A stretch of 64,000 nt of DNA from an uncultured Chloroflexia bacterium (GTDB lineage: Bacteria > Chloroflexota > Limnocylindria > QHBO01): the NCBI GenBank assembly GCA_963814375.1, contig CAWFCQ010000008.1, positions 1-64,000 on the forward strand, written 5' to 3'. Shown here piece by piece: positions 2,072 to 40,897 of the stretch (positions within the stretch are counted from its first letter, which is position 1; the number at the start of each line of letters is the position of its first letter). Below the pieces are notes generated by a model that saw only the letters and a program-made list of their open reading frames with translations, searched no databases and was not told the DNA's origin. A program made the translations under genes and the position numbers.

Positions 2072-2200
2072 TTCTCCGTGCCAGTAATCAACGGAGACCG
2101 AGGACGGGTTCGAGGCCCGGTTGTTACCCGGGCTGGACAATCCACAACGAGAATCGGGCTAGATCGGCGTTCCTTCTCCGTTGGTTACCAGAACCGGTAA
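2072..2200 (+). repeat. Triple-box element copy 1
   Basis: Boxes at 2072 (TTCTC-N6-AGTAA), 2124 (TTACC-N6-GGACA), 2185 (TTACC-N6-GGTAA); inward TCAACGGAGA / TCTCCGTTGG. Confidence 0.9.
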
Positions 2201-2350
2201 ACCTCGGCGAGCCCTGACGTGCGCCCACTGTTGAGCGTACGCCTGAGTGCAACGTCGTAGAGCCCGGGGCTGGACGGCGGCGGTATCGTCAAGCTAACAA
2301 CCGTAGGCAGGCACCGACGCACCGGTTGTGCCCACGCGGCGTCGAATGGA

Positions 2351-2704
2351 TTGTTGAGTCTCGCGAATCGCGTCGACGCGCTGGCGGTCCAGCTGCCGGA
2401 GGGCGATCCTCGGAAGGCGGAGTTCCGACGCCTGATCGCCGCCCTGGCCGATGAGTGCGGCTGCACGATGGGCGGCATCTTCCTCGTGGCCGCAACCGTC
2501 GTCGCCATCGGCTGGTTCGTCGTCACCGGCGGACTCGGTATCGGCTCGGGGGCCCTGGCGGCCGCCCTCGTCTTCGCCGCGTCCCTGGTCGGCAAGGCGA
2601 TCGGGCTCGGAATCGCCCGCATCCGGCTGCTCCGCCTCCGGCACGAGCTCACCGCGCGGCTCGCATCGGTCCCGATCGCGGCTCCCGCGCAGGGCGAGAG
2701 CTGA
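2351..2704 (+). CDS. Small membrane protein (2 TM) with an ECGC motif
   Basis: Hydrophobic hairpin after DECGC; stop lies 3 nt before the next gene; start uncertain. Confidence 0.7.
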   Translation: MLSLANRVDALAVQLPEGDPRKAEFRRLIAALADECGCTMGGIFLVAATVVAIGWFVVTGGLGIGSGALAAALVFAASLVGKAIGLGIARIRLLRLRHELTARLASVPIAAPAQGES

Positions 2705-2707
2705 CCC

Positions 2708-4770
2708 ATGTCGAGCTGCACGAAGTGGGTCACCCGGCTGGTCATCACCTGCGACAACTGGTCGCAGAAGGTCGACTACGAGTGCACCACATGGGCGGAT
2801 GAGGGCTCCTACGAGTGCTCGGAATGGGCGGATGAGGGGCGCAACGAGTGCGGCGACTGGGGGAAGAAGTGCAAGTGGTACACGCCGTGGAACTGCGTCG
2901 CGGAGTGGTTCTGCAAGGCGTGGTACTGGGTCGCTGAGTGGGTCTGCAAAGGCTGGTTCTGGCTCGCGAAGTGGGTCTGCAAGGCGTTCGCCTGGGTGGT
3001 CAAGGGATCTGCGTCGTCTTCTCGTGGTTGCTGACACTCGTCTGCGTCGCCTGGGACTGGCTGCGCTGCGCGATCCTCGCCATCGTCGCGCTGTTCACGG
3101 AGCTCTTCGGCGGTCGGGGTCGTGAGCGCCAGCGCAAGGTCGATCGGGTCTTCGTCCTCATGCTCGAGAACCGCTCGTTCGACCACATGTACGCGTTCAG
3201 CGGGCTCACCGGCGTGGGGATCGATGGTCAGCCGACGACGGCGGACGTGGCCGGGCCGGCCGACACGAACATGGATCCGACCACGAATCAGCCGGTCGCC
3301 ATCAGCCAGCCCGCCGACTTCGCTCTCAAGAACGTCGACAAGGACCCGCCCCACGAGTTCTGCGACGCGCTCGTTGCGCTGACCGGCGTCGACGTCTTCG
3401 ACCCGGCCGTCGGCTACCCGCCGATCAATAACTCGGGCTTCGTCGCGCACTACCTCGCCAAGGGCGGCGCCAGCGCCCAGCGAGCGATGAGCGTCTTCGG
3501 ACCGGAGCAGCTTCCCGTGCTCAACACCCTCGCCCGCGAGTTCGCGGTGTGCGACGCCTGGTTCTCGTCGCTGCCGGGCCCGACCTGGCCGAATCGGTTC
3601 TTCGCGATGGCGGCGTCATCCGGCTCGCTCGACGACAGCCCGAGCACGGCCGACGTCATCCTCTCGGAGACGCTCAACGGTTACCGATTCTGGAACGGCA
3701 CGATCTTCGACAAGCTCGACGACCGATGCATCGAGTGGAACGTCGTCGAGGGTGACGAGTTCCCGGTCGCCTTCGCGCTGCACGGCATGAACCTCAACGC
3801 GCTCCAGGGCCGGTTCGAGGACTTCTCCGACTGGACGTCCTCGGTGCAGGGGGCGGGGTACGGTCCGAAGTTCATCTTCATCGAGCCGCAGTACGGCGAG
3901 TCCACCTTCGGCGGCACCGGGCCTGGCGACTACACGTGCGGCAACTCGATGCATCCGCTCGACGACGTCGTGCGCGGCGAGCGCCTCATCAAGGACACCT
4001 ACGAGGCAATCCGCAGCTCACCGCACTGGGAGTCGAGCATGCTGATCGTCACCTTCGACGAGCACGGCGGCTTCTACGACCACGTCGCGCCGCCCGCCGC
4101 CGTGCCGCCCGGCGACGTCGCGGTCGACAGCTATAACCACTACGGCTTCAAGTTCGACCAGCTCGGCGTCCGCGTCCCGACGCTCGTCATCTCGCCGTGG
4201 ACCGCGAAGGGCGTGATCGATCACACGACCTACGACCACACCTCGATCCTCTCGACCGTCGAGCGCCTCTTCGGCTTCGGGGCGCTGACCAACCGCGACG
4301 CCGCCGCGGCCGACGCCCTGCACCTGCTGAGCCTCGAGGCACCGCGGACCGATGCGCCGCTCACCCTCCCGGAGCCGGCAACCAATCCGACTCCGCTGGG
4401 CTGCTCGGACGAGGAGGAGTCGGAGGACGTCCTGCTGCGGCGTCGGTCCGAGCTGCGGCTGTCCCGAGAGGACCGCCAAGCGCGTGCCGCGGATGGAGAG
4501 GCCGGCGACGTCACGGAGGAGCCCGTCGCGAGCTCGACTCAGCTCGGCTTCGCGCAGGTCGCCCTCATGAAGGTGCTCCAGAGCGCGCGGTATCCCGAGC
4601 GCGAGCGCTGGCGCGAACAGTTCGAGACGATCGCGACCCAGGCCGATGCGGAGCTCTTCATGGTCGAGGCAAAGCTCGCGATTCGCCATGACGTCGACTT
4701 CAAGCGTCCGCGCGACACGGACCGTCCGGGAGGGACGCGCGACGCTCGCCTGGGGGCAACCCGCCGTTAA
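2708..4770 (+). CDS. Phosphoesterase / phospholipase C (AcpA/PlcH-like) with N-terminal Cys/Trp 11-residue repeat domain; frameshift near 3005
   Basis: VLMLENRSFDH, GPTWPNR, TFDEHGGFYDHV and GVRVP motifs; one extra G in AAGGGATC fuses ORF 2708..3034 to ORF 2938..4770. Confidence 0.85.
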
Positions 4771-4786
4771 CCGCGCCTCCGGTCGG

Positions 4787-5344
4787 TCAGCTGACCTGAT
4801 GGGAGATCACCGGATCGCCATCGACCTCGCGGGTCCTCGTCAGCCACAGGTGCTCGCCGTCGGGCACGTCGAAGATGATCCAGTAGACGCTCCCTTCGGC
4901 CATGCCGGGTTGGAGCTCATCGGCCGTGAGCTGTTGCGGACGCTCGGGCGGACCTGTCCCGTCGTCGCACCTGAAGTCGAAGAAATGGGTGCCGTCCGCA
5001 TCGTCGCGGACAGCCCATCCGATCAGCGGGTCCAGCACGTCGGGATCGGGTATCTCCTCGTGGATCTCGACCGCCAGGCACCAGCCGTCGTCGTTGGCTG
5101 AGGGATCCCATCGGCGAAGGTCGGCCACCTCGTACAGGAACCCGTCGATCGTCACTGGCTCGCCGAGCTCGAGCTGCATCGGCGCATCGGCTGAATCGGA
5201 GACCGGGTACGGCGCCTGGGTCGTGGCGGGTAACGCCTCCCAGGAGCTCGACGTAGCGATCGTGGGTTGGCCGGCGTCGGTTGCACAGCCCGTCGCGGCG
5301 GTGGCGAGGCCAACGATCGCGACGGCGACGCGACGGGTGAGCAT
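4787..5344 (-). CDS. Lipoprotein of unknown function
   Basis: MLTRRVAVAIVGLATAATGC lipobox-like signal; acidic beta-rich domain. Confidence 0.7.
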   Translation of the reverse strand: MLTRRVAVAIVGLATAATGCATDAGQPTIATSSSWEALPATTQAPYPVSDSADAPMQLELGEPVTIDGFLYEVADLRRWDPSANDDGWCLAVEIHEEIPDPDVLDPLIGWAVRDDADGTHFFDFRCDDGTGPPERPQQLTADELQPGMAEGSVYWIIFDVPDGEHLWLTRTREVDGDPVISHQVS

Positions 5345-5382
5345 CGGCGGAGTATCGGTGATGCGCTGCCGCTGCACTTGCT

Positions 5383-5512
5383 TTCTCCGTGCGGGTAACC
5401 AACGGAGAGGAAGGGTGCATTCGATGGTCGCGTGTTACCAGGATTGGGAAATCCACGACGAGAATCGGCCCGGATCGGGTCTTCCTTCGCCGATGGTTAC
5501 CAGCTGGGGTAA
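5383..5512 (+). repeat. Triple-box element copy 2
   Basis: Boxes at 5383, 5435, 5497 (52/62 spacing); CCAACGGAGA; ATCCACGACGAGAATCGG identical in copy 3 and one mismatch in copy 1. Confidence 0.9.
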
Positions 5513-5696
5513 ACCACGGCGCGAAATCGGTGCCCTTGCCATCGGGGGGAGAATGTAGGGGAGAGACCGCGCCCCGAGTGCGCGGCGCCACAGGACCGAT
5601 GGGCGCTGCACGCGACTACCTCTCCGGAGGCCCGTGCCCAGCCACGCCGGCGCTCCAGACAGCCCCGCTGCGGGCATGTTTCGGAGGAGCACGCTG

Positions 5697-7919
5697 ATGC
5701 TGGACCCACGAACGCCGCTTCGCGACCTCGACCTCAATCTCGACGACCTCGTCGTCAAATGGCCCTGGCTCGGCTTCGGGATTCAAGGAGTCGAGGTCAC
5801 CCAGGCGGTTCAGTACTACGACAGCGAGAAGCACCTGACCGATGCTGCCGATCGGCAGCCGGACAACAGCGTGACGCTCATCGCCGGCAAGCCCGCGTGG
5901 GTTCGCGTCTACGTTCGCAGCGGCTGGTTCTCGGGTGACATCGCCGGCGTCACGGGCACCATCAGCGTCCGTCGGCGCGACTTCGGGTTCCTGTACCTGC
6001 CGGCCGGCACCCTGACCGCGGAGCCTCCGGGGACGGTGACCGCTCGCCGCAGCCCGTCGTACGCCACGGAGCGCGGGACGCTGGGCTACACGCTGAACTT
6101 CATCATCCCGGCGGCGATGATGTGCGGGCATCTCAGGCTCGACGTCCACGTCACATCACCGGGCGGCTGGACTGCCGACCAGCGCGTCTACATCGACGCC
6201 ACGCTGCAGCAGACGGTGCGCCTCGCCGGAATCATGGTCGGCTACAACGGCCCGTCGAGCACCGCGGCCGGGGCTCCGAACATCACGCGGGCGGCCCCGA
6301 CGCTGAACGACCTTCGGACCACCTCGGCCTGGACGCTGACCACGTTCCCGGTCAGGAGCTTCGCCACCTATCGCACGGCGGGGACGGTGACGTGGAACCT
6401 CCCGCTCACCGATCCGCCGAGCTGTCCGGGCTGTTGTACGCCGAACTGGGTTGCGCTGAACACCGCCGTTCAGCAGGTCCGGATCGCCGACGGCAATCGG
6501 ACCGACGTCCTCTACTACGGGCTCATGGCAGCGGGGATACCGATGGGCCCCATCATCGGCTGCAACAGCGGGGGAGTGAGCACGGGATCGATCGGCGACG
6601 AGGTGACGATGGCCCACGAGCTCGGTCACGCGTGCGGCCGACCGCACTCGCCGTGCGGGACGCCGGGCGATCCCGCCTATCCCGCCTACGAGCCATACGA
6701 TCCGGCTGGCACGCCGATGGCCTCGGTCGGCGAGTACGGACTCGACATCACCAACGGCGCGATCAAGTCGCCGGCCACCTTCAAGGACTTCATGTCCTAC
6801 TGTGGTCCGCGATGGATCTCACTCTTCGTCACGGGCCGTCTGACCAACAACGCGTTGCTCGATCCGGTCCGTGTCTGCGAGGACCGTCCATGGTGGGTCG
6901 ACGAGATCCTCATCGATCGCCAGCTCATCCCCGAGAAGTGGCTCCCGAACCCGCCACCTGAGCTTCCCTGGCTGGAGCGCACCGTGACACCGCAGCCGGT
7001 CATCTCAATCATCGGCGTCCTGCACGGCCCGAACGAGCTCGAGGTCCGCAGCGTGGTGCGCGTCGAAGCCGAGAGCGCGATCACGAACGGCCGCGCCCTC
7101 GACATGCGGGCAGAGCTGGTCGGCCGGCAGGGCGCAGTCGTCGCGAGCGGGGCGCTCTACGCGCTCCAGTCGTACGCGAACGGCGACTGCGGCTGCGATG
7201 GCGGCCCCGAAGACGAGGCGGGCGAGACGTACCCGCGCCTCGTTCAGGCCTTCGTCCCCGACGCCGAGCCGGGCTCCGAGCTGCGGATCACCCGCGGCGA
7301 CGAGATCGCATGGTCGCGGAAGGCGTCAGCACGGCGACCGAAGATCGGCGAGACCGCAGCGAGTCTCGAAGGTGACCGACTCGAGGTCAGCTGGTCCACC
7401 GACGCGGCCGGCGAGACGGAGCCGGAAGCGCTCGTTCAGTGGAGTTCCGACCGCGGTCGGACCTGGCATGGTCTTGGCGCTGGGCTTCGCGGCGATTCCG
7501 CGCGGCTCGATGCGCGTGGGCTGCCGTCCGGACGGGTCTCGATCCGCGTGCTCGTCAGCGACGGGTTCCACACTGCCACCTCCCGCACCGTGAGCGTGGC
7601 CATCAAGGCACGGCCACCGGAGCTCAGCATCCTCAGCCCTCGCGACGGAAACACCTTCGCGGCCGGCGCGCCGATGCGCCTGTGGGGCATGACGTCGGAT
7701 GCGGCCGAGGATTCCAGCGACGACGACTCGACAGTCTGGGAGGTCGACGGCAAGGAGGTCGCGACCGGGCTGGACGCCTTCGTCACCGCTCCGAGGCCTG
7801 GAAACCACCGGGCCACGCTGCGCACGCGCGGTCGCGGGCGGCGTGCTGAGGCGACGGTCAGGTTCCGGACGGTCGAGTTCGGCGAGGAGCGCGATGCCGA
7901 ATCGCCTGACGCCCGCTGA
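5697..7919 (+). CDS. Metzincin-type zinc metalloprotease with C-terminal Ig/Fn3-like domains
   Basis: HELGHACGRPH (HExxHxxGxxH) and DFMSY Met-turn; RBS GGAGGAG before ATG 5697. Confidence 0.85.
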   Translation: MLDPRTPLRDLDLNLDDLVVKWPWLGFGIQGVEVTQAVQYYDSEKHLTDAADRQPDNSVTLIAGKPAWVRVYVRSGWFSGDIAGVTGTISVRRRDFGFLYLPAGTLTAEPPGTVTARRSPSYATERGTLGYTLNFIIPAAMMCGHLRLDVHVTSPGGWTADQRVYIDATLQQTVRLAGIMVGYNGPSSTAAGAPNITRAAPTLNDLRTTSAWTLTTFPVRSFATYRTAGTVTWNLPLTDPPSCPGCCTPNWVALNTAVQQVRIADGNRTDVLYYGLMAAGIPMGPIIGCNSGGVSTGSIGDEVTMAHELGHACGRPHSPCGTPGDPAYPAYEPYDPAGTPMASVGEYGLDITNGAIKSPATFKDFMSYCGPRWISLFVTGRLTNNALLDPVRVCEDRPWWVDEILIDRQLIPEKWLPNPPPELPWLERTVTPQPVISIIGVLHGPNELEVRSVVRVEAESAITNGRALDMRAELVGRQGAVVASGALYALQSYANGDCGCDGGPEDEAGETYPRLVQAFVPDAEPGSELRITRGDEIAWSRKASARRPKIGETAASLEGDRLEVSWSTDAAGETEPEALVQWSSDRGRTWHGLGAGLRGDSARLDARGLPSGRVSIRVLVSDGFHTATSRTVSVAIKARPPELSILSPRDGNTFAAGAPMRLWGMTSDAAEDSSDDDSTVWEVDGKEVATGLDAFVTAPRPGNHRATLRTRGRGRRAEATVRFRTVEFGEERDAESPDAR

Positions 7920-7996
7920 CCTCACCGGGATGGTGTTCGCGGCTGCTCGTTGACGAGCGGCCGCGAGCGCCTCGATCCCGCGGCGTCCGTTGCCGT

Positions 7997-8126
7997 TTAT
8001 CCGTCTCGGTAAGCAACGGAGAGCGAGGACGGTCTCGATGTCCGCGCGTTACCGGCCATGAGAAATCCACGACGAGAATCGGTCCAGATCGGTCGCTCCT
8101 TCGCCGTTAGTTACCGAAGCGAGTAA
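7997..8126 (+). repeat. Triple-box element copy 3
   Basis: Boxes at 7997, 8049, 8111 (52/62); GCAACGGAGA / TCGCCGTTAG. Confidence 0.9.
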
Positions 8127-8147
8127 ACGGCGCGGAGACGTCCGCGT

Positions 8148-8174
8148 TGTCACGCCACGCCTGCGTGTCCCGTC
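8148..8174 (+). promoter_or_regulatory. ECF41 (SigJ)-type promoter
   Basis: TGTCACG-N16-CGTC matches the ECF41 consensus TGTCACA-n16-CGTC and lies upstream of the epimerase-sigma pair. Confidence 0.75.
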
Positions 8175-8208
8175 ACCCCTCTGGACACACATCCAGAAGG
8201 GGAGACTC

Positions 8209-9150
8209 ATGAAGGTTCTCGTTGCGGGAGCGACCGGCGTCATCGGACGACAGCTCCTGCCAAAGCTCGTGGCCGCCGGTCACGAGGTCGCGGGCACGAC
8301 GCGCACGCCTGACAAGGAGCGCGTCGTGCGCGAGCTGGGCGCAAGGCCCTTCGTCGTCGACATCCTCGATGCCGATGCGGTCGCGCGAGCGGTGGCGGAC
8401 TTCGCGCCGGAGGTGATCGTCCACGAGGCGACGGCGCTATCGTCGGTTGACATGCGCCACTTCGAGCGCGCCTTCGCCGTGACGAATCGCCTCCGAACGG
8501 AGGGAACCGATCATCTGCTGTCGGCCGGCCGCGCCATCGGCGTTCAACGCTTCGTCGCGCAGAGCTTCGCCGGCTGGCCCTTCGCCCGCAGCGGGCCGCG
8601 CGTCAAGACGGAGGACGATGCCCTCGATCCCGACCCGATCGGACCGATGCGAACCACGCTCGCCGCGATCCGGCATCTCGAGGCCGCCGTCATCGGCGCC
8701 GGCTGGACCGACGGGATCGTGCTTCGCTACGGCGCTCTGTATGGTCCCGGCACGTCGATGGATGCCGATGGCGGCGACATGACCGCGATGATCCGCCGCG
8801 GCTTCTTCCCGATCATCGGCGATGGCGAGGGCATGTCGTCCTTCATTCATGTCGCCGATGCGGCGGACGCGACCGTCGCGGCAGTCGAGCATGGCACCCG
8901 TGGTGTGTACCAGGTCGTCGACGACGAACCGGCGCCGGCACGCGAGTGGCTGCCTGCGGTCGCCGCCGCCCTCGGGGCGCCGAAGCCGCGACGGATCCCG
9001 CGCTGGCTGGGGCGGCTGCTCGCCGGCGAGGCGATCGTGGCGATCTCGACCGAGACGCGTGGCGCGACGAACGACCGCGCCAAGCGCGTGCTCGGCTGGA
9101 CGCCACGCCACGCCTCGTGGCGTGACTCGCTGGGTCGGGCGGGCGCGTGA
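8209..9150 (+). CDS. NAD-dependent epimerase/dehydratase family protein
   Basis: GATGVIG Rossmann motif, LRYGALYGPG, SFIHVADAA. Confidence 0.9.
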   Translation: MKVLVAGATGVIGRQLLPKLVAAGHEVAGTTRTPDKERVVRELGARPFVVDILDADAVARAVADFAPEVIVHEATALSSVDMRHFERAFAVTNRLRTEGTDHLLSAGRAIGVQRFVAQSFAGWPFARSGPRVKTEDDALDPDPIGPMRTTLAAIRHLEAAVIGAGWTDGIVLRYGALYGPGTSMDADGGDMTAMIRRGFFPIIGDGEGMSSFIHVADAADATVAAVEHGTRGVYQVVDDEPAPAREWLPAVAAALGAPKPRRIPRWLGRLLAGEAIVAISTETRGATNDRAKRVLGWTPRHASWRDSLGRAGA

Positions 9151-10097
9151 CGAAGGCCGCCGCAGACCTCGAGCCGCTGCGACGGCGCGCCTTCGCGATC
9201 GCGTATCGGATGCTCGGATCGGTGGCGGAGGCCGAGGATGTCGTGCAGGAAACCCTCATCCGCCTCCACCGCGCGACCGAGGCCGGGCAGAAGATCGAGT
9301 CGCCGCAGGCGTACGCAGCGACGATCACGACCCGGCTGGCGATCGACGTCCTTCGCTCGGCGCGCGTCCGCCGCGAGCAATACGTGGGTGACTGGCTGCC
9401 CGAGCCGCTGGTGGAAGCTCCCGAAGGCGATCCGGCGCAACGGGCGGAGATGGTCGACTCCCTCTCCTTCGCCTTCCTGGCGGTACTCGAGCGGCTGACG
9501 CCGGAGCAGCGTGCCGTGTTCCTCCTCCGCGACGTGTTCGACTACGGCTACGACGAGATCGCCGAGATCGTCGACAAGACTCCGGAGAACGCCCGCCAGC
9601 TGGCCGTTCGTGCGCGACGCCGAGTTCGCGAGGGACGACCACGGTTCGCGGTGTCATCCCGGCAGCGCGACCGGCTGGCGTCGAGCTTCTTCGCCGCCGT
9701 CGAAGGCGGCGACCTCAAGGCGCTCGAGGCCTGCCTGGCCGAGGACGTCGTGCTGCGGGGCGACGGCGGCGGCAAGGCTCCGGCACTCGGCCACTCGATC
9801 GTCGGACGCGCCGACGTCGCCCGCGCGCTGATGGCCTGGACTCGCATCGGCGAGCGGTTCGGCGGGTCTCTCCAACGCGTGACGGTCAACGGCGGACCGG
9901 GTGCGCTGGCGCTGGATCCGGACGGACGGTTGCTTGCCGTGTGGGCATTGGACGTCACCGACGGCGGGATCCGCGGCGTGGCCTCCATGGTGAACCCGGA
10001 CAAGCTCCGCCACATCGGCGAGGTCGGGTCGATGCGCGATGCCCTGGACAGCCTCAGTCGGCAGCGTAGACCCGACGCGGGCCCTCGATCCCCTTGA
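9147..10097 (+). CDS. sigJ: ECF41 sigma factor (SigJ-like) with SnoaL-like C-terminus
   Basis: AYRMLGSVAEAEDVVQE, YVGDWLPEP, DGGGK and NPDKL ECF41 signatures. Confidence 0.88.
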   Translation: MTKAAADLEPLRRRAFAIAYRMLGSVAEAEDVVQETLIRLHRATEAGQKIESPQAYAATITTRLAIDVLRSARVRREQYVGDWLPEPLVEAPEGDPAQRAEMVDSLSFAFLAVLERLTPEQRAVFLLRDVFDYGYDEIAEIVDKTPENARQLAVRARRRVREGRPRFAVSSRQRDRLASSFFAAVEGGDLKALEACLAEDVVLRGDGGGKAPALGHSIVGRADVARALMAWTRIGERFGGSLQRVTVNGGPGALALDPDGRLLAVWALDVTDGGIRGVASMVNPDKLRHIGEVGSMRDALDSLSRQRRPDAGPRSP

Positions 10098-11367
10098 GAA
10101 CATGCTCGCCACGGTCGGTGAGGCCGATGCCCGAGCCCTCGACGAGGTCACGGGTCGTCTGGCTGACGATGACCTCGCCCGCCTGCGCGAGCGCCAGGAT
10201 CCTCGCCGCGAGGTGGATGGCGATTCCCCGTGGTCCATCGGCACCGAGCTCCACCTCGCCAGTGTGGACGCCGGCTCGGATCTCGAGGCCGAGGTCGCGT
10301 TCCGCCTCCCTGATCGCCATGCCGCAGCGGATGGCACGGGCGGGGCCGTCGAAGCGAGCGAGGAAGCCGTCGCCGGCGGTATCGACTTCGATGCCACCGT
10401 ACCGGTCCAGCTGCTGCCGGACCGCATCGTGGTGACTCTGGAGAAGGCGTGACCAGGCGGCATCGCCGATCTCGCGCGCGCGATCGGTGGAGCCGACGAT
10501 GTCGGTAAAGAGGATCGTGGCAAGGACCCGATCGGCGTAGGGAGCGGGGCGTACGCCGGTGAGGAACTCTTCGATCGGATCGACGATCTGGTCCGCATCG
10601 ACGAACGGGACATGAACGTCGCCCGGCAGCTCGATGAACTGAGCGCCCGGGATGTGCTCCGCGATGTATTTCCCTTCGGCGACCCGCGAGTCGAGGTCGC
10701 CGGTGCGGTGGAGGACCAGGGTCGGGCAGCGGATCGCGGGGAGGATGTCGCGGACGTCGACCTGCGAATTCATGAGGATGAGATCGCGTGCCGCGGCCGG
10801 GCTCAGCGACGCACGTGCCATGCGGTGAAACCAGGCAGTGGTTCCGGCATCGGCGTGCGGGGCCATCCTGGAGATATCGACGTCCACGCCCCAGCCCTCC
10901 TCGAGGTGGGCCGCGGTCGCCTGCCGCTCCTCCCAGGTCGGCGCCCACGGGTAGTCATCGGTCCGAATGCGCTTGGCGTAGCTGCCGTACAGCACCAGAG
11001 CCCGTGTCCGATGTGGGTACGTTGCGGCGAACAACGCGCTCATCGGCCCGCCCTCGGAGTAGCCGAAGAGCGCCGCTCGCTCGCTGCCGGCGGCATCCAT
11101 CACCGCCCGGACGTCGTCCATCCGAGCCTCGAGATCGGGCTGTCCCACGCTGCGGTCGGAGAGCCCGGTGCCGCGCTTGTCGAACCTGATGAGCCGCGCA
11201 AATGAGCCGAGGCGCTCCAGGAGGGCAGCGTTGCCAGGATGCTCCCAGCCGATCTCGAGGTGGCTGAAGAAGCCCGTGACCAGCACGAGATCGAACGGCC
11301 CGCCACCCGTGATCTCGTAGGCGATGTTGACGTCGCCGCTGCGCGCATACGAGATCGTCCCGGGCAT
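10054..11367 (-). CDS. Alpha/beta-hydrolase fused to class III adenylate/guanylate cyclase (LipJ-like)
   Basis: FDKRGTGLSD, GYSEGG; LFTDIVGST, AGDGF, RAGVHTGE, LKGI. Confidence 0.9.
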   Translation of the reverse strand: MPGTISYARSGDVNIAYEITGGGPFDLVLVTGFFSHLEIGWEHPGNAALLERLGSFARLIRFDKRGTGLSDRSVGQPDLEARMDDVRAVMDAAGSERAALFGYSEGGPMSALFAATYPHRTRALVLYGSYAKRIRTDDYPWAPTWEERQATAAHLEEGWGVDVDISRMAPHADAGTTAWFHRMARASLSPAAARDLILMNSQVDVRDILPAIRCPTLVLHRTGDLDSRVAEGKYIAEHIPGAQFIELPGDVHVPFVDADQIVDPIEEFLTGVRPAPYADRVLATILFTDIVGSTDRAREIGDAAWSRLLQSHHDAVRQQLDRYGGIEVDTAGDGFLARFDGPARAIRCGMAIREAERDLGLEIRAGVHTGEVELGADGPRGIAIHLAARILALAQAGEVIVSQTTRDLVEGSGIGLTDRGEHVLKGIEGPRRVYAAD

Positions 11368-11426
11368 GACGACAACGGTACGCCGTCTTCCCCGTTGCGT
11401 CGCTCCATGGCAAATGCGACACGGAT

Positions 11427-11494
11427 TTGTCGGCCCGGGTAAGCGACAGCCATCGGCAGGCGGTTGGTTCGCCGTTGCTTACTGAGGCCGGTAA
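11427..11494 (-). repeat. Triple-box element copy 4 (partial, reversed)
   Basis: Boxes at 11427 (TTGTC-N6-GGTAA) and 11479 (TTACT-N6-GGTAA) 52 bp apart with TCGCCGTTGC; third box not recognisable. Confidence 0.75.
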
Positions 11495-11734
11495 AGGCCA
11501 GCGGCCGCGGCGCAAGACGTTCGGGCGGTCCGGATCGGATGCGACGCCTAGTCAATTCGGTCTTGTCACCGGCCGGCGGCGAGGTGCATAGTGACCGGGA
11601 CGCTTTGAAAGCCGGGCGGTGGTTGTGAGCATCAGCTCCACACGTCGCGTCACTCCTGCGTTGGTGCCTCGAGCGCGGTCTTCCACGTTGTCCCGGCTCC
11701 CCGGCAGTGCCACGGCCGCATTTCCGCGCGAGTG

Positions 11735-14270
11735 ATGAGCTTCCTCGGTCAGCTGATCGCGCTGGGCATGGCCAGGGCGGCGCTCGGTGCGTCGATTCCG
11801 GCGTTCGGTGGTGAGGATCCGCTCGGCAACGCCCCCGGCTGGGAGAACTGGCACCACGAGGGGCTGACCCGGCAGGCCAGCCGATCGGCAAAGTGGACCG
11901 AAACCGCGCAGAACGCGCTGGCGTTCCACGCCGATTACCTGGACTCCTACCTCTACAACCCGCTCTGGTGGTTCGACGTGGGCAACGGCGGTGGCCCGGA
12001 CCGCCTGTCGCTGGCGATGTCCTCGCGAACCGACCTGGTCAAGGTCCACTTCGACGACCTCACGCATCCCGAATCGGTCCGAAGCACGTGGCGTCGCTAC
12101 CTGTCCGGAACCGCGGCGGGACTGATCTGGCTAGGAGGAGCCGATTCCGGACCGAGCGAGCAGCGAGTGGCGATGGCCTACAACATCGTCGGCGCCTCTC
12201 TGCACGCCATCCAGGACTTCTACACGCACTCGAACTGGATCGACGACGAGGATCTGCGGAGCAAGACCTGGTTCGAGACCGATCCGGAGCTGCGGGACTG
12301 CCTGAGCCTCTGGACCGGGACGTACGAGCTGCCTGAGCACCTTGGCGTATTGCCCCACGGAAACTTCGTCTACGCCTGCACGGTCATCAACAACTTCGGC
12401 TCGGAGGGCCGCAGCCGTTCTGGACGCCGTGTGCCACGCCGCCTCGCCGCTTGCGACCTCGTCGCTGTGCTCGTGGTTCAGGGAATGCGCCGACACGGAG
12501 AACCTCCAGCCGCCGACCATCGAGATCCCCGTCGATCTCCCGGTCGTGGACGAGACGGTCACGCTGCCGCCGAATGTGCTCTGGGTCGAGCCCGGGATCA
12601 ACGTCGACAACCGCTGGTCGGCCGAGACGGGCGTGAAGATCCGGGGCCTCGCGCCGGCGGTCACCGGGAAGATGGCGTTCGAGACGGCCTACGAGCTGGC
12701 CTATCGCAGCTCCTGCCAGTGGCTCCACATCCTGGGACACGTCATGGACGCGGCTCAGCTCGCCGACTTCTGGCAGTCGGTCAAGACAGGCGGTGTCGCC
12801 GATGGCGACTACAAGACGCCGAGAGCGCCGTGGGAGGACTTCTCGCAGCTTCCGTATCGGTTCATCTCGGCCGGGCCCTATCCGCCGACGGATGCCAGCG
12901 CCGATGTCGACGACTGGTACCTGCGGCTGCTCATCCGCACCGCCGGCGACAGCTTCGCCGGCACCGATGCCGACATCGTCCCGTGGATCAATGGCAAGGC
13001 GTTTCCGCCGCTCGATCACGGCATCCCGCCATCGGTGCCGCCGCCGGGGCAGCCCGCGGTCCGGACTCTCGACCAGTCGCTCCTCGGGCACAACGACTTC
13101 GAGGCGGGGGACGTCGCGGCGTACATGATCGGACCGCTCGACGAGCCGCCGCACACGGTGGCGCTCGTGAACGACGCTCCCGACGCGGGGGACGTGATCC
13201 AGGCCGCCATCAACGAGATCGGTCGCAGCCTCACCAGCCTCTGGAACTCCGTCGTCGGGCTGTGGGGCTACCACGCCGATTACGTCGGTCAGAACCACTG
13301 GGTCTTCCCGGCGGCGCAGCTCGCGACGATCGGCGCGGGATCGAGGCGGTACTTCTATCTCGAGTGTGACGGTCGGTCCGAGGGCAACTTCATCGTCTCA
13401 GGCTGGGTGGAAGGCACCTCCCAGACCGGGCGGTTCGCCAACGGTGTTCCCTGGCGACGCTTCACGGTCCAGTTCGCGGAGCTCATTTGCGAGAAGGAGT
13501 CGGAATGGGATCGCTTCACGACTTCCGACGAGCCGTTCGTGCTCGGCCTCGTCATCCCCCACGGCGGGACGCAGCCGATGTCCGCCTGGCGCACGGTGCC
13601 GTACACGAACGTGAACACCGGCGACAGGAACCCCATCGGCCGCACCTTCACCGTCGAGGTGCCGCAGCGCTACGGTTTCATCTCGGTGGCGTGCGCCGTG
13701 TACGAGTCGGACGACGAGACGCCGAATGACCGGGACCTGCTCCTGGCACGGTTCGCCGATGACACAGCCGCCGCCATCGCTCAGCCGGAGAAGTCCTTCA
13801 TCGAGGCGCTGGGCGAATCGATCGCGGCCGGCTGGAAGCTCGCATCGGTCGAGGCGGTCGCCTTCAAGCGTTCGCCGAAGGTTGATGTCCGTGCCTACGA
13901 GCCGAGGACCTTCGACCAGTGGGTCGATGGCGGTTCGCGCGTGGAGTGGACGCTCACCGATCCTCGGACGTGGGAGGTCGACGTCCCCGACATCATCGAT
14001 TGCGGCTGCAAGGCCTGCACCGATGACGTCGTCCTCCCTGGACTGGCGCCCGAGATCCAGACCCTCGACTTCCGACCGGTTCCCGGAACCAGGGTCGATA
14101 CCGGGCCGGATTCCGGTAAAGAGCTGCGCGTCAACCTCGCTCAGCTGGCAGCCGGGTCCGTGTGGGAGGCCGATCCCGACGAGCCCCGGCTCATCGAGGA
14201 CGAGCCCCAGGATCCGCCGCGACCCAGGGACGATTGCGCTGACGAGACCCCAGCTCAGAAGGGCCGATGA
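11735..14270 (+). CDS. Het-C/Zn-dependent phospholipase-C-like domain + PLAT/LH2 domain protein; frameshift near 12405
   Basis: HHEGLT...HFDD...LHAIQDFYTHSNW (Het-C/VWA7-N-like); TAGDSFAGTDAD...NDFEAG (PLAT); joins ORFs 11732 and 12342. Confidence 0.75.
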
Positions 14271-14868: not shown

Positions 14869-14999
14869 TTACCTGCGCGAGTAACCAACGGACAACCAGC
14901 GGCCGATTCGAGCCTGCAGATATCCGGAAATTACCAGCAGAGGTAACGGATGGCTGCGGAAGCGACCCTGCATCTCCGTTGCTTACCGACGCGGGATAA
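14869..14999 (-). repeat. Triple-box element copy 5 (reversed)
   Basis: Boxes at 14869, 14931, 14983 (62/52); CCAACGGACA / TCTCCGTTGC. Confidence 0.9.
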
Positions 15000-15911: not shown

Positions 15912-15924
15912 GCGGCGCCTGCGA

Positions 15925-16054
15925 TTACCCGTGCTGATAGTCAACGGAGACCGAAACCCGATTTCGGGCCGACGAGCGACGCGGAACTATCAGCATCGGT
16001 AAGAGAAGGCCATCGGGAGGCCCCTGCTTCTCCGTTGCTTGCCGATGCCGGTAA
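15925..16054 (-). repeat. Triple-box element copy 6 (reversed)
   Basis: Boxes at 15925, 15987, 16039 (62/52); TCAACGGAGA / TCTCCGTTGC. Confidence 0.9.
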
Positions 16055-32735: not shown

Positions 32736-32865
32736 TTACTGGCATGGGTAAGCAACCGCGAGGCAGAGGCGTTTCGGTGCCGGCAATTCACCGCCATGGG
32801 TAAGTCCGGGACCGTTTCAGGCCGGAATTCGCCTTCCGATCTCCGTTGGTTACCAAGGGCGGGAA
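32736..32865 (+). repeat. Triple-box element copy 7
   Basis: Boxes at 32736, 32788, 32850 (52/62); GCAACCGCGA / TCTCCGTTGG. Confidence 0.88.
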
Positions 32866-34337: not shown

Positions 34338-37300
34338 TCAGCTGCCCTGGACGAGTTCCTCGGCAGGCCGCGCGGCAGTGACGGGTTCGGCGGGTGAGCC
34401 GGGCGTCTCGTCGGTCTTGGCGAGGGCGGCATCGAGCAGGTCGAGGAGCGCGGTTGCCCGCAGCCGGGTAAAGATCTCGCGCGCCTCTTCGGCAGCCCGG
34501 CGACGCTCATCCGGCTCCATGGCGCCGGTGGTGACGATGTCCAGGTCGGTCATTGCCGACCAGAACGGGGTTCCGAGCTCGCGGAAGAGGCGCTGTGCCT
34601 CGAGGTAGTGGCCGCGGGCGTCCGCTCGACGTCCCTCGAGCACGGCGATCCCCGCGTCCATCGTGGCGAGCAGAGCCCTCGTCCGACCCCCGTCGCCTTC
34701 ACTCGCGAAGAAGTCGCGCAGACGAGTGGCCGACGCGGCGTCGCCCTTCCAGATCGATGCTCGCGCCCCGAAAATGCTGGACTCGGCGCCAGCCAGGCTC
34801 GCGTCGATGGCCTCCTCCGACAGCCGGCAGACCTCGTCGAAATGGCCACGCAGCAGCGAATCAACCGCTTTCGCAAACGCCCCGATCGTGAGGTACTGCG
34901 GATCGTCGAAGTGGCGCGAGTCGGCGTAGAGCTGGTCGGCCTCGGCCTCGATGTCCTCGCCGCGATACCCGCGGATGACGGCAGAATAGGCGCCGAACCA
35001 GAGTCGCTCCGCCGGCTCGGTGAAGAGGGCGTCCATCTCGGCCATGGCATCCATCGCCCAGTCCCAATCGCCGACCTCGATGGCAGAGTCCACCGCGTTG
35101 CCCAGGACGTAGCGGATGCTCCACATCACTCCGCTGCGCTTCGCCTCCTCGATCGCGCCTCGCGAGATCTCGAGCGCCCGGGCGATGTCGTCAGTTGAGA
35201 GCACGTAGCCGAGGTTCACGGCTGCCCGATTCACCAGCTCGGGGTCGCCGAGGCGCCTCGCGAAGTCCAGGGCGCCGGTCAGGATCACCTCCGACTCGAG
35301 CGTGCGACCGAGATTCGCGATCGCAACGGCGCGCGTGATGATCAGGTCGAGCACCACGCGCTCGTCGACCCTCCGAGGAGCGACCGGAAGCGTCGCATCC
35401 GCGAGCTCGACGGAGCGCGCGTTGTTCAAGGCCCGCATCTCGGCCTTGGCCAATATCGTGGCGACCTCGATGTAGCCGGGTGTGTCCAGCGTGAAGTCCG
35501 GCTCGGAGATCGTGGCATTCAACAGCTCGAGAGCCCGCTGCTGCTGGCCCTCGGTGAGCACATTGGCGAGGCGCGCGACGATGAGACGCCGCTCGGTGTC
35601 CCGCCCGAGCATGCTCGCGATGGCGATCGCCCGGTCTCCGTGGTCGATCGCCACGTCGATGAGCCCGGCTCGGGCCGCGGCGTCGAGCGCCAGCGAGCGA
35701 AGGTCCAGCTCGTCGGAAGGTTCGGTCACGACCAGGAGCCCGCTCTCAAGATAGGCGTGCGCCCTCCGGAACGACCCCAGGTCCGCGGCACGTTGCGCCG
35801 CGGCGCGCAACGCAACGCGGGCCTGGGCGGCCACGGCGGCACCCTCCTCCCCGTCGGGGTGCGCCTGGTAGGCATCGACGTAGTGCTGTGCCAGCACGCC
35901 GGCCAGCTCGTCATCGCCGAGTGACTCGTAGTGGCGGGCGGCGGCGAGATGGCGCGTGCGCCGATCGTCGCGCGAGAGAGTGCCGTACGCGACCTCGCGT
36001 AGAAGGCCCTGGACGAATCGGTAGTTGCCACGCTCCGGGGAGCGCGGATCCGTCTCGATGATCAGTAGCTCACGCCTCACGAGGTGCTCGAGCATCGGCC
36101 CGACCTCGTCGGGCTCTGAGCGTGCGACCGACTGGACGGCCTCATCGGCGAAGGAGAGGCCGAGGACGGAGGCGTCCTGGAGAAGCGTTCGCTCGGCGGG
36201 CGGCAGCGCGTCGATCCGCGCCGCGATGAGCGCATGAAGCGACTCCGGCACCGCGAGGTCGCCGATGTCGCCGACCGGGCGGAAGGCCTCGCCGTCGCGC
36301 TCGAGACGCCCGTCGTTGAGCAGCGTTCGAATCATCTCCACCGCGTACAGCGGGATTCCCTCCGCCCGCTCGACGATCCTTGCGATAGCCGCCTCGGGCA
36401 GGCCGGGAACGAGCCCGTCGAGCAGGAAGCGCATGTCGTCGTCCGCAAGAGGTGCCAGGGCGAGGGAGGTGAAGCTGCGCTGCCCGGCACCCCAGTTCGG
36501 ACGACGGTCCAGGAGGTCGGGGCGGGCCAGCGTGATGACGTAGATCGGATGGCCGCGCGACCATGCCAGCAGCTCCTCGATGAAGTCGAGGAGGCCGTCA
36601 TCCGCCCACTGGAGGTCCTCGAACACCATCGCCACCGGCGCGACGTCGGCGATGCGCTCGAAGAAGGTTCGCCAGGCCACGGGAAGGTGGCCAGTCTCCT
36701 TCGACTGAACGTCGCCGATCCCGAGCAGGTGAAGGAGTGGCTCTTCGAGCGAGGCGCGCTCGTCGGTATCGGGCACGAACTCGGCCAGGCTCGCGGCCAG
36801 CAGCTGGCGGGTGGTCGCCTCATCAGCTGCGTCGTCGGCGCCGATCCGCATGCGCACCATCTCGCCGAGCGCCCAGAAGCTGATGCCGTCGCCGTAGGCG
36901 GGCGAGCGGCCCTGATGCCAGTACACCACTTCGGTGACGCCATCGATGTACTTCAGGAACTCCCATGCCAGCCGGCTCTTGCCGATGCCGCCCTGGCCGA
37001 TGACGGAGACGAGCCGCGGCCCGCGGTCGCGGGCGGTGGCGTGGTAGAAGTCCTTGATGAGCTGGAGCTCGCTGTCGCGACCGACGAACGGCGGCTCCAG
37101 GCCCTCGCTGCGGCCCACCCCGCCGCGCTGTGCCACCACGCGCAGCGCCCGGAAGGCGGCCACGGGTGCCGCCTTGCCCTTGAGCTCCTGCTCCCCGGCC
37201 TCCTCGAACACGATTGCCTCGCCAGCTGCGCGGCGGGTGCCGTCGCCGACCAGGACGGTCCCCGGCGGCGCGACCGACTGGAGGCGCGAGGCGGTGTTGA

Positions 37301-37883
37301 CCAGGTCGCCTGCGACCATGCCCATGCCGCTCGCGCCGATGGTGACCACCGCCTCGCCGGTGTGCACCGCGGCCCGCAGGGCCAGGTCGGGAACCTCGCG
37401 ATCGGCGCCGATGCGTCGGACGGCATCGACGAGGTCCATCGCGGCCCGGACAGCCCGCTCGGCATCGTCCTCCTGGGCGGTCGGGGTGCCCCACACCGCC
37501 ATCACCGCGTCCCCGATGAACTTCTCGACCACCCCGCCGTAGCGCTCGATCACCGCTCGAGAGGTCTCGAAGTACGAGCCGAGCAGCTCGCGGACATCCT
37601 CGGCGTCGCGCCCCTCGCTCAGGGTCGTGAAGCCGACCAGGTCAGCGAAGAGGACGCTTACCAGCCTTCGTTCGGTCGCCGGAGTGGCGGCAGAGGCGGG
37701 CGTGTCGGTGGGAGCCGCGGGCACGTCGGCGCCGGTGAGGACGTTCCCGCACTCGCCGCAGAACTTCGCCTCAGGGGTATTCGCCGAACCGCAGCTCGCG
37801 CATGCCACCGCCAGGCGCTGTCCGCAGCTGAGGCAAAACTTTCGGCCGATCTCGTTCTCGGCCGCGCAGTTCGAACAGTTCAC
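34338..37883 (-). CDS. Double zinc ribbon + class III cyclase + AAA ATPase + TPR-like (STAND-type) protein
   Basis: Two CxxC pairs, LFADLVGFT, KFIGDAVM, GQGGIGKSRL, FEDLQWAD, helical repeat C-terminus. Confidence 0.92.
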   Translation of the reverse strand: MNCSNCAAENEIGRKFCLSCGQRLAVACASCGSANTPEAKFCGECGNVLTGADVPAAPTDTPASAATPATERRLVSVLFADLVGFTTLSEGRDAEDVRELLGSYFETSRAVIERYGGVVEKFIGDAVMAVWGTPTAQEDDAERAVRAAMDLVDAVRRIGADREVPDLALRAAVHTGEAVVTIGASGMGMVAGDLVNTASRLQSVAPPGTVLVGDGTRRAAGEAIVFEEAGEQELKGKAAPVAAFRALRVVAQRGGVGRSEGLEPPFVGRDSELQLIKDFYHATARDRGPRLVSVIGQGGIGKSRLAWEFLKYIDGVTEVVYWHQGRSPAYGDGISFWALGEMVRMRIGADDAADEATTRQLLAASLAEFVPDTDERASLEEPLLHLLGIGDVQSKETGHLPVAWRTFFERIADVAPVAMVFEDLQWADDGLLDFIEELLAWSRGHPIYVITLARPDLLDRRPNWGAGQRSFTSLALAPLADDDMRFLLDGLVPGLPEAAIARIVERAEGIPLYAVEMIRTLLNDGRLERDGEAFRPVGDIGDLAVPESLHALIAARIDALPPAERTLLQDASVLGLSFADEAVQSVARSEPDEVGPMLEHLVRRELLIIETDPRSPERGNYRFVQGLLREVAYGTLSRDDRRTRHLAAARHYESLGDDELAGVLAQHYVDAYQAHPDGEEGAAVAAQARVALRAAAQRAADLGSFRRAHAYLESGLLVVTEPSDELDLRSLALDAAARAGLIDVAIDHGDRAIAIASMLGRDTERRLIVARLANVLTEGQQQRALELLNATISEPDFTLDTPGYIEVATILAKAEMRALNNARSVELADATLPVAPRRVDERVVLDLIITRAVAIANLGRTLESEVILTGALDFARRLGDPELVNRAAVNLGYVLSTDDIARALEISRGAIEEAKRSGVMWSIRYVLGNAVDSAIEVGDWDWAMDAMAEMDALFTEPAERLWFGAYSAVIRGYRGEDIEAEADQLYADSRHFDDPQYLTIGAFAKAVDSLLRGHFDEVCRLSEEAIDASLAGAESSIFGARASIWKGDAASATRLRDFFASEGDGGRTRALLATMDAGIAVLEGRRADARGHYLEAQRLFRELGTPFWSAMTDLDIVTTGAMEPDERRRAAEEAREIFTRLRATALLDLLDAALAKTDETPGSPAEPVTAARPAEELVQGS

Positions 37884-39785: not shown

Positions 39786-39799
39786 GCAGAGGGCCTCGC

Positions 39800-40153
39800 T
39801 CAGATCGAGACAGGCTTGTCGGGGTCGGAGACCGTTCGGGAGGCGATCGGATCGGCCTCGTCGTACTCGTCCTCGTTGAGCGGAGCGCCCTCGGTCCGCG
39901 GCGGCTCCGTCGGCTTCTCCGACCAGTCGCCCTGGTCGACCGCCTCCTGCGTCAGCGATACACCGATCTCGCTGAGCTCGGGACGAACGTGGGCAAGTGT
40001 CGCAGCCGGCAGGAACCGATGCGTCGCGTTGATCATCCCCGACTTGATCTCGATGTAGGTGTCGGTCGTCTCCTCGACCGTCCCGATGTCCGCGCCGTCA
40101 GCCGTCTTCACCTTCCAGCCGCTCTGGATGCCGTGAATGTCGTTGGTGGTCAT
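39800..40153 (-). CDS. DUF2171/PRC-like small protein
   Basis: GWKV.TADG.DIGTVEE...IEIK.G pattern. Confidence 0.7.
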   Translation of the reverse strand: MTTNDIHGIQSGWKVKTADGADIGTVEETTDTYIEIKSGMINATHRFLPAATLAHVRPELSEIGVSLTQEAVDQGDWSEKPTEPPRTEGAPLNEDEYDEADPIASRTVSDPDKPVSI

Positions 40154-40203
40154 GCGCTCGCTTCCAGCAGGTCGCGTGCCGTGGCTCGCGCTACCGTCTT
40201 CGC

Positions 40204-40749
40204 GTGCTGATCCGATTGGCCGATCCCGATCGCGACGCGGTCGCTGCGACCGCGATCTATCGTCCGGCGGTGGAGGATGGCCTCGCCTCGTTCGAGGAGG
40301 TCGCGCCCGATCCTCCCGAAATCGCGCGTCGCATGCGTGCGACACTCGAGCGCCTGCCTTGGCTGGTGGCCGAGGAGGGCGGAGAGGTGATCGGGTATGC
40401 CTACGCCGGTCAGCATCGCGAGCGGGCCGGCTACCGGTGGTCAGCGGACATCTCGGTCTACGTCGCGGCCGAGCAACAGGGGCAGGGCATCGGTCGGCGG
40501 CTGTACGACGAGCTGCTGACGATCCTTCGACGGCAGGGCTACGTGAACGTCTACGCCGGCATCACGCTGCCGAATGCGGCCAGCGTCGCGCTGCACGAGG
40601 CGATCGGGATGCGGCGCATCGGCGTCTACGAGCGCGTCGGGTACAAGCTCGGCGCCTGGCACGACGTCGCCTGGTACGGGATGCGCCTCTCCGACCCGCC
40701 GGGCGTGCCCTCGGAACCCGTTCCATTGCCTCGTCTGGCCAGCGAGTGA
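40204..40749 (+). CDS. GNAT acetyltransferase (phosphinothricin acetyltransferase-like)
   Basis: ASFEE, GYAYA..HRER..Y.W, SVYV, QGQGIG, N.ASVALHE, GYK.G.WHDV. Confidence 0.9.
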   Translation: MLIRLADPDRDAVAATAIYRPAVEDGLASFEEVAPDPPEIARRMRATLERLPWLVAEEGGEVIGYAYAGQHRERAGYRWSADISVYVAAEQQGQGIGRRLYDELLTILRRQGYVNVYAGITLPNAASVALHEAIGMRRIGVYERVGYKLGAWHDVAWYGMRLSDPPGVPSEPVPLPRLASE

Positions 40750-40756
40750 GCCGGAC

Positions 40757-40897
40757 TTACCGCTGCGGGTAACCAACGGAGACCGATAGGGCTGATCCGC
40801 GCCGAATGTGGCTTATTTCGGTCGGCGACTTACCACCCCTGGTAACGGGCGACCATCGAGATCGCCGCCCTTCCCCGTTGCTTACCGATGCCGGTAA
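40757..40897 (-). repeat. Triple-box element copy 8 (reversed, 11 bp longer)
   Basis: Three perfect TTACC-N6-GGTAA boxes at 40757, 40830, 40882 (73/52); CCAACGGAGA / TCCCCGTTGC. Confidence 0.92.

Follow-up and report, generated by a model that had tools for sequence, protein, structure and literature searches.

What are the intergenic repeats of about 130 bp, each built around three palindromic boxes of the form TTACC-N6-GGTAA, that recur in the first 64 kb of contig C8 of an uncultured Limnocylindria bacterium, and which protein might act on them? This stretch, called the window below, belongs to the source assembly G000 (2.52 Mb, eight contigs, 89% complete); C numbers without a prefix denote contigs of G000, and other G numbers denote genomes of relatives. 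Our analysis confirmed that the three-box repeats form a real family and not an ordinary one. On balance, we regard them as non-autonomous mobile DNA with terminal inverted repeats (TIRs), in which the three boxes are putative dimer sites of a single lineage-specific protein, the presumed mobilising enzyme, that joins an XRE-type helix-turn-helix (HTH) domain to a PD-(D/E)xK nuclease fold. As far as full-text literature searches show, the system of element and protein is undescribed; these searches, with supplementary files outside their scope, found no paper describing either one.

With up to one mismatch allowed, TTACC-N6-GGTAA was found 15 times in the window against 0.06 occurrences expected, a number reached in none of 100 shuffles, and all 15 matches fall inside the eight intervals listed by an initial annotation that had been made from the sequence of the window. 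The AT-rich half-sites are conspicuous because the G+C content of the window is 69%. Alignment of the copies gave the order along the polar unit as box A, arm, a linker of about 27 bp containing a CGATGG-like motif, box B, a linker of about 48 bp, inverted arm and box C. The arm has the sequence (G/C)CAACGG(A/C)GA, and the palindrome is extended by a T preceding the element and an A after it. The imperfect TIRs of about 26 bp, which had already been noticed, were recovered with arms that are 79% complementary. Box offsets are 0/52/114 or 0/62/114, and the length is 129-131 bp in 16 measured copies; copy 8, with offsets of 0/73/125, measures 141 bp. The majority-base fraction is 0.81-0.98 in the half-sites and 0.93-0.94 in the arms versus 0.52-0.59 in the N6 cores and 0.63-0.64 in the linkers, in agreement with the earlier proposal that boxes and geometry are under constraint while cores and linkers vary. 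Pairwise identity among the copies averages 61% (range 49-82%), and neighbouring copies are the most similar (74-76% among copies 1-3 of the window). Since copies this old keep their boxes and length, each copy or lineage must be under constraint. A DnaA-box-like motif after the middle box of the G000 copies was dropped, as it is not conserved in other species.

The box search and a profile search both supported the eight window copies with the coordinates, orientations and spacings first given for them; their strands are, in order, + + + - - - + -. Copy 1 (2072..2200, +) lies in a divergent intergenic region upstream of a phosphoesterase gene region; its left box is degenerate and fails a filter of two mismatches, and its alignment is nonetheless full length (nhmmer, 119.7 bits). 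Copy 2 (5383..5512, +), a profile match, and copy 3 (7997..8126, +), upstream of genes for an epimerase and an extracytoplasmic function (ECF)-type sigma factor, are both full length with boxes at 0/52/114. Copy 4 (11427..11494, -), which had been called partial, is indeed truncated to box A, arm and box B (nhmmer, 35.6 bits, model positions 8-91) and lies 47 bp upstream of a gene assigned by Pfam to alpha/beta-hydrolase plus cyclase. Copy 5 (14869..14998, -) is full length with boxes at 0/62/114 on the + strand, and copy 6 (15925..16054, -), also full length, lies between DUF1801 and DinB-family genes. Copy 7 (32736..32865, +) is full length between an open reading frame (ORF) of 233 aa on the - strand and the PAC2 gene on the + strand, and copy 8 (40757..40897, -), between GNAT and MerR genes, owes its 141 bp to an internal insertion of 11 bp.

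The whole genome and its relatives were then scanned, as the initial annotation had suggested. A profile built from seven copies and searched against the whole G000 assembly yielded 20 loci (18 full, 2 partial), eight of them in the window; the others are at C8:523391, six on C7 (18-33 kb, all minus), one each on C1, C3, C4 and C5, and a partial one on C1. All 20 are intergenic, in divergent, tandem and also convergent contexts. Among the boxes of G000, all 24 exact ones and 42 of the 44 with one mismatch lie inside elements, and none of the 30 occurrences of the arm motif (up to one mismatch) lies outside an element. This confinement of exact boxes to elements, together with the lack of arm motifs elsewhere, means that the box does not stand by itself as an operator. 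No solo terminal repeats and no longer element with the same ends were found in G000. The copies are clustered: six lie within 15 kb around the HTH gene described below and eight within 39 kb in the window, and either cluster was matched by none of 20,000 random placements. The solo elements are scattered intergenic copies, mostly near the gene or in one flexible region, the window. Its cluster region is poorly conserved in five relatives and rich in paralogous cyclase/AAA_16 genes. Analysis of GC skew yielded no placement of the clusters relative to origin or terminus.

The layout of three subsites over about 130 bp resembles that of resolvase res sites, and a res/att-like recombination site had been among the first suggestions. 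We give hardly any credence to a site of the res, att or dif kind on which a serine or tyrosine recombinase would act. The 89%-complete assembly contains no resolvase-family gene and just two tyrosine recombinases (C4:116 kb and C4:161 kb), both distant from every cluster of elements; the central N6 varies between copies, which is poor for exchange by a tyrosine recombinase; and a res site is expected once per replicon or transposon, not as 20 dispersed copies. Searches of the same assembly for genes of Y1_Tnp (PF01797), rve, Transposase_mut and resolvase (PF00239) found none; metagenome-built assemblies often lose copies of insertion sequences (ISs). The sole DDE_Tnp_1 gene of the assembly (C5:268165) was considered as a partner and rejected, as it has no matching inverted repeats. 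The earlier observation that no gene for a cognate recombinase or transposase is visible in the window also held; the candidate partner gene lies on contig C7.

Palindromic boxes and inverted ends could also belong to a folded nucleic acid. Searches of the whole window on either strand gave no Rfam match at the gathering threshold, so the novelty of the family was not removed by this comparison. Single strands of the element do fold with z-scores of about -2 to -6, since the terminal repeats can pair, and folding together with alifold showed only the terminal-repeat stem. In an alignment of 18 copies, however, the three box hairpins were paired in 88.1% of cells versus 88.8% in shuffled alignments, with no compensatory changes; the 26-bp terminal stem was paired in 79.1% versus 80.0%, and the S (G/C) position adjoining the box was unpaired in 10 of the 18 copies. 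The absence of base-pair covariation indicates that sequence and geometry are conserved, not a fold, and the conservation of sequence in each arm, rather than of pairing, points to recognition of double-stranded DNA by a protein. We therefore consider it very improbable that the repeats act as folded single-stranded DNA or RNA, whether as hairpins recognised by a Y1 enzyme, as in repetitive extragenic palindromic (REP) sequences, or as terminators or mRNA stabilisers; the box stems are, moreover, merely 5 bp long and AT-rich, and a Y1_Tnp gene is missing from the assembly. The description of an unannotated, polar family of sites of double-stranded DNA type, and not of RNA, accordingly stands.

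The repeats are mobile. At the site of copy 8, the interval between the GNAT and MerR genes measures 341 bp flank to flank in G000 versus 160-182 bp in 13 related species, and in the element-free relatives the end of the GNAT gene directly joins the conserved MerR promoter; in another two relatives the interval contains additional DNA of unrelated sequence. The divergent interval upstream of PAC2, which holds copy 7 in G000, spans about 36 bp in seven relatives; in an eighth, about 60 bp of different sequence is present. At C8:523391, none of 13 orthologous loci has the element. Three insertion sites that are empty in relatives, together with copy numbers that range across the genus from none detected to dozens, demonstrate mobility. 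Here and below, genus tallies are over 63 genomes and class tallies over 201, including genomes flagged as unpublished (G006, G050, G075, G150 and G208), and kinship among relatives was ignored in all counts across them, which overstates their independence. Of 24 other genus genomes, 5 contained matches to a strict pattern, as did none of 16 genomes of other families, and a sequence-only covariance model found it in 30 of the 63 genus genomes, always at about 130 nt and with from one hit to about 25 loci (G014). Arm variants are species-specific and common to both arms, and tandem pairs occur with a period of 156-168 bp. In one element, at G003:C11:42100-42480 (L103:12100-12480), a unit of about 50 bp that comprises box and arm on the left side stands four times in tandem before the rest of the element, and a similar arm triplication is found in G055 downstream of its paralogue.

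Comparison of the orthologous loci at PAC2 and at GNAT-MerR, which had also been suggested, thus yielded the empty sites, but no consistent target-site duplication. Such a duplication was found neither in 18 copies of G000 nor in 20 copies of G041; the flanks weakly extend the palindrome instead, and conservation in the G041 sister family (20 copies) ends at the outer half-sites. A single 8-bp flanking repeat is unique to copy 8, and the inserts that hold copies 7 and 8 are longer than the 130-bp core by about 20-30 bp. Among metagenome contigs encoding the MerR neighbour, 14 loci were obtained (best protein identity, 82%), none with the element and none close enough to define an insertion boundary. 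Among public runs, the only ones with any of the sampled window words were four from soil or outdoor metagenomes, which contained 5-7% of them, too small a share for naming a habitat. Their short contigs gave no usable empty-site joint; one joint, supported by one contig (side 40), falls within copy 2 (5413 to 5529) and is ambiguous between the arms. Copy 8 was inserted about 15 bp upstream of a promoter/operator block of the MerR-family gene (window about 40915-40950, starting TTGACTCTC) that is conserved in all aligned relatives, and it gives the GNAT gene a new stop codon.

A search for a co-occurring DNA-binding gene, likewise proposed at the outset, led to an XRE-HTH/nuclease-like gene of 0.65 kb (C7:23974-24625, -) located between two co-oriented elements beside nrdJ, which encodes class II ribonucleotide reductase. 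G000, G003, G014, G018 and G066 share this arrangement, in which element, HTH gene, element and nrdJ follow one another in the same orientation. The offsets of the boxes from the start and stop codons are the same in G000, G003, G018 and G066 (in G000, -176/-124/-62 and +16/+68/+131); in G014 the upstream element and the gene start are separated by about 1 kb that contains a further ORF, and the gene found at the corresponding position in G009 is more diverged. The nrdJ-linked gene is syntenic across species and therefore vertically inherited. It is intact in G003, G018 and G066. An element is also present in the nrdJ leader of 300-430 bp, at C7:18391-18528 in G000 and at the orthologous loci in G003, G014, G018, G066 and G009; being in this leader in every species examined, it could affect nrdJ expression. 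The very end of contig C1 (C1:85845-85958) matches the HTH part of one paralogue weakly (E 0.013) and may hold the beginning of another gene of the family, cut off by the assembly.

The intact partner protein has 217 aa, and the names under which its relatives are filed in databases assign the organism to Candidatus Limnocylindria, phylum Chloroflexota. Pfam recognised HTH_31 (score 29.8, cut-off 27) and HTH_3 (27.6, cut-off 23) at residues 21-76 and no other domain, and residues 88-217 had no match in Pfam, NCBIfam, PADLOC, PHROGs or a PDB sequence profile, in all of which only the HTH part matches. AlphaFold modelled the whole protein with a predicted local distance difference test (pLDDT) score of 89 and the C-terminal domain alone with 96.3. 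Among known structures, the N-terminal domain most resembles those of repressors and controller proteins, with C.BclI at Z 10.5 and with ClgR, HipB and DdrO. The modelled C-terminal core has the order H-E-E-E-H-E, that is, the alpha-beta-beta-beta-alpha-beta core of the PD-(D/E)xK fold, and nearly all of its top 50 structural matches are PD-(D/E)xK nucleases. NucS/EndoMS is the best (Z 9.1, root-mean-square deviation 2.8, 92 aligned residues), and others are the XisH-like excision factor 2okf (Z 9.0), Can2 (8.3), AF1548 (8.3), Card1 (8.0), Hjc (7.0), Vsr (6.0) and several restriction enzymes. Ten residues are invariant in 32 diverse members (E114, D122, R124, D127, C135, E140, Q151, K158, D161 and N177), with D127 on strand 2, E140 on strand 3, and Q151 and K158 in the next helix. 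A homodimer complex model scored 0.73 versus 0.00 for the best control (20 of 30 solved pairs, and 1 of 23 single chains, attain this mark), with runs agreeing in at least 85% of contacts and pLDDT of at least 84. Its interface is formed by the HTH domain and residues 75-86. Since XRE dimers have already been solved, this pass may reflect likeness to solved structures.

Gene and element have diversified together. The protein family is present in 53 of the 63 genus genomes, with up to seven copies at 30-70% identity, and in 119 of the 201 class genomes, with 59 of 66 and 59 of 60 genomes in two families versus 0 of 66, 0 of 7 and 0 of 1 in three others; the number of genes per genome is 1-13. 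Its C-terminal domain falls into 680 clusters at 50% identity and nearly always occupies residues about 88-217 of a protein of about 217 aa, and plasmid and phage collections searched with the protein gave no match. When the G000 element model was searched with filters off at 29 paralogue loci, element-like matches on both sides and on the gene strand were found in at least nine, and one-sided or weak matches in five more. With a detector of arms, 24 of 60 flanks, belonging to 16 of 30 loci, proved to contain a terminal-repeat element, versus 4 of 2000 random windows, and in other genera matching TIRs of at least 19/24 were present on both flanks in 3 of 7 loci versus 1 of 150 random windows. 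The arm types differ between paralogues and agree between the arms and between the two flanks of each gene.

Moreover, the inner half-site tracks the recognition helix of the HTH domain. Helices TSVARIS/TSVGRIS are accompanied by the inner half-sites GGTAA/GATAA, TSGSRIS by CGCGA, TSTSHVC/TSTSQVC by CGGAA/CGGGA, TSPASVC by CGGCA, TSISHVS/TSIAHVS by CGCAA, TSAAHVS/KSASHVS by CGCAC, KSTSYVS by TGCAC and RSGSWIS by GTCAY; among these pairs, those of G006 and G050 come from genomes flagged as unpublished, and the same two types are found in G011 and G045. A second arm type forms dispersed, clustered populations, with 71 arms in G041, 32 in G053, 13 in G016 and 11 in G001, against 1-6 for reversed-pattern controls. 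This second, related family, whose arms are of the CGGRACTAACGGCCA type and lie in pairs about 93 bp apart (C5:232133-232240, C5:239732-239839 and C1:32732-32839), has 3-4 copies in G000, where the assembly holds no cognate gene, and about 35 copies in G041.

How the protein might act on the element can be outlined from this architecture. Binding of a dimer to a palindrome of the form 5-N6-5 is the classic mode of the XRE family. Dimers would bind at the middle box and at both outer boxes, in the latter case together with the adjoining CAACGGAGA-type arm. As the centres of the sites are 52 and 62 bp apart, about five and six helical turns, the three sites lie on one face of the DNA and could form one wrapped nucleoprotein complex, within which the nuclease domains would cut at or near the ends of the element and so lead to events of copying or movement. 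Solo copies may also arise by recombination between the two elements flanking a transposed gene unit, as solo long terminal repeats (LTRs) do. Binding, cleavage and the role of the protein as mobilising enzyme are what we infer. A nucleoid-organising role, another of the first suggestions, is neither needed nor excluded.

The same phasing of three sites on one helix face would suit composite looping operators. Under such an explanation the HTH protein is a regulator whose nuclease-like domain functions in sensing or oligomerisation, and the elements are operators or architectural sites that control nrdJ and neighbouring genes and were spread by other means. The closeness of the HTH domain to repressors and controller proteins and the element in the nrdJ leader of 5-6 species are consistent with this, and 12 of 19 G000 copies are upstream of, and co-oriented with, the adjacent gene. 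That last proportion is no different from chance, however, and copies are also found between convergent genes (C3:21454 and C7:28843). Paralogue genes carry sites on both sides, the gain of 130-bp copies where relatives have none calls for a mechanism of mobility in any case, and the invariant acidic residues and lysine argue for catalysis. We consider the operator explanation unlikely.

The bracketing of the gene by two co-oriented elements, in a multi-copy family, also recalls a composite unit. In that case the mobile unit would be a cassette of about 1 kb (element, gene, element), and the 130-bp copies would be residues of direct-repeat recombination that were never moved in trans. The longer inserts at copies 7 and 8 and the variable number of genes per genome would fit. 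Paralogues within a genome are 30-60% identical, however, and not recent copies, and the synteny of the nrdJ-linked gene speaks for descent rather than movement. The numbers of elements and genes also differ widely, with about 35 elements of one type versus five genes in G041 and 20 elements versus one gene in G000. An origin of the 130-bp copies as relics like solo LTRs seems to us improbable, somewhat more so than the operator explanation.

Mobilisation of the elements by the HTH-nuclease protein, which we prefer, has to be set against several observations. To our knowledge, no stand-alone PD-(D/E)xK transposase has been reported. The fold matches of the C-terminal domain, with Z of at most 9.1, are moderate, and Foldseek with either model gave no match at E 0.001 or better. 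The position of the (D/E)xK lysine on strand 3 is occupied otherwise (E140-L-W), so that catalytic competence is no more than plausible; K158 in the next helix of the model is only a candidate substitute for the canonical lysine. The gene of G000 has a +1 frameshift near codon 167 (C7:24123-24125), outside a homopolymer run, and the orthologue in G014 (G014:C7:295691-296337) is likewise split by a frameshift; either decay or assembly error could account for this. If the frameshift in G000 is real, its elements may be fossils, which fits the age of the copies. No copy of the gene lies near the window cluster, the arm detector found no flank element at 14 of 30 paralogue loci, and many genomes with the protein family lack detectable elements of the G000 type. 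Conversely, G019 and G023 have strong element matches and no close orthologue in their assemblies, and G009 has about 8-9 elements of the G000 type with an nrdJ-linked gene whose recognition helix is different. With relatives that are 75-84% identical, neither a target-site duplication nor a sharp insertion boundary was definable, and the counts across relatives overstate the support, because kin are not independent. All these points weigh against our interpretation, and the strong candidate partner makes it directly testable.

Among known systems, the closest comparison is with REPs, their paired form (REPINs) and the REP-associated tyrosine transposases (RAYTs). In the literature drawn on here (PMC3116915, PMC3337134, PMC5581495), REPINs and REPs are described as short palindrome-bearing intergenic repeats dispersed in tens of copies, and the RAYT gene as usually single-copy per type, vertically inherited and flanked by its own repeats; each RAYT paralogue has its own flavour of repeat, clusters of repeats adjoin the gene, and long co-evolution was inferred (same sources). 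The Limnocylindria system is similar in its dispersed palindromic repeats, its vertically inherited gene, usually single per type and bracketed by repeats, the clusters beside this gene, one flavour per paralogue and long co-evolution. In contrast to REPIN/RAYT, the protein here combines an XRE-HTH domain with a PD-(D/E)xK fold, whereas an HUH transposase of the Y1 type (PF01797) is absent. The boxes, moreover, have the character of dimer sites on double-stranded DNA with no covariation of hairpins, and the unit is polar, with three sites at a fixed spacing of 52/62.

The elements also resemble bacterial miniature inverted-repeat transposable elements (MITEs) in being small, non-coding and intergenic, with TIRs of about 26 bp and 20 dispersed loci, in the variable presence of copies between relatives and in species-specific sub-families. 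The early suggestion of a MITE end structure is thus close to the present interpretation as regards empty sites and patchy distribution in the genus, but no parent IS with a known transposase was found in G000, nor a target-site duplication. A gene bracketed by matching elements does exist, but its product is no known transposase. Unlike MITEs, the copies are old and yet keep their boxes and length. Similarity to XRE repressor and controller systems (C-proteins, HipB, ClgR, DdrO) extends to the closest HTH domain and to the modelled dimer interface in that domain; those proteins are without a nuclease-fold domain, and their operators are single or paired at promoters, unlike 130-bp mobile units flanking the gene. 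With the PD-(D/E)xK nucleases NucS/EndoMS, Hjc and XisH-like proteins the C-terminal domain shares its fold and has invariant acidic residues, but there is no sequence-family match, and those nucleases are neither fused to an XRE HTH domain nor bracketed by repeats of their own. TnsA of Tn7 is a PD-(D/E)xK nuclease of mobile DNA; it was absent from our lists of structural matches. Taken together, the best reading is a REPIN/RAYT-like or MITE-like system with an unrelated class of protein. As a tentative and bolder possibility, a lone XRE-HTH/PD-(D/E)xK enzyme that binds three phased sites as dimers and mobilises a 130-bp element, co-diversified with it into many specificities in two Limnocylindria families, may represent a new class of selfish replicator.

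Some features of the DNA around the elements were also noted. Positions 1-17500 of the window, which contain six of its eight copies, resemble a flexible region: the DNA is poorly conserved in five relatives, with matches only for the cyclase, DUF1801 and DinB-family genes and one small ORF. Adenylate/guanylate-cyclase paralogues are found in both element clusters, at window 34338-37883 (-) and 10054-11367 (-) and at C7:22340-23764 (-) and C7:29945-32275 (-), three with an AAA_16 ATPase domain and two with zinc ribbons, often directly beside an element. Both cluster regions might be shuffled in part through recombination among such paralogues. Two long ORFs of 761 and 642 aa (window 5634-7919, +, and 12342-14270, +), with coding-like G+C at third codon positions and no Pfam match, also lie beside elements.

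Interspersed repeats with a dedicated, vertically inherited enzyme have so far been known essentially from REP/REPIN-RAYT. If our interpretation is true, the Limnocylindria elements would be a second case, based on an unrelated fold and on phased double-stranded sites, and this lifestyle would be a general evolutionary outcome; on the bolder possibility above, it would have been invented a second time independently, in the first transposition-like system driven by a restriction-endonuclease-fold protein alone. The matched HTH and half-site specificities would then provide a natural series useful for studying the evolution of DNA recognition, and a role would be assigned to a protein family of about 680 clusters (50% identity) that is annotated merely as 'XRE regulator'. 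For the annotation of Limnocylindria soil genomes, elements in promoters and leaders, such as those of nrdJ, PAC2 and the MerR regulator, mark flexible regions.

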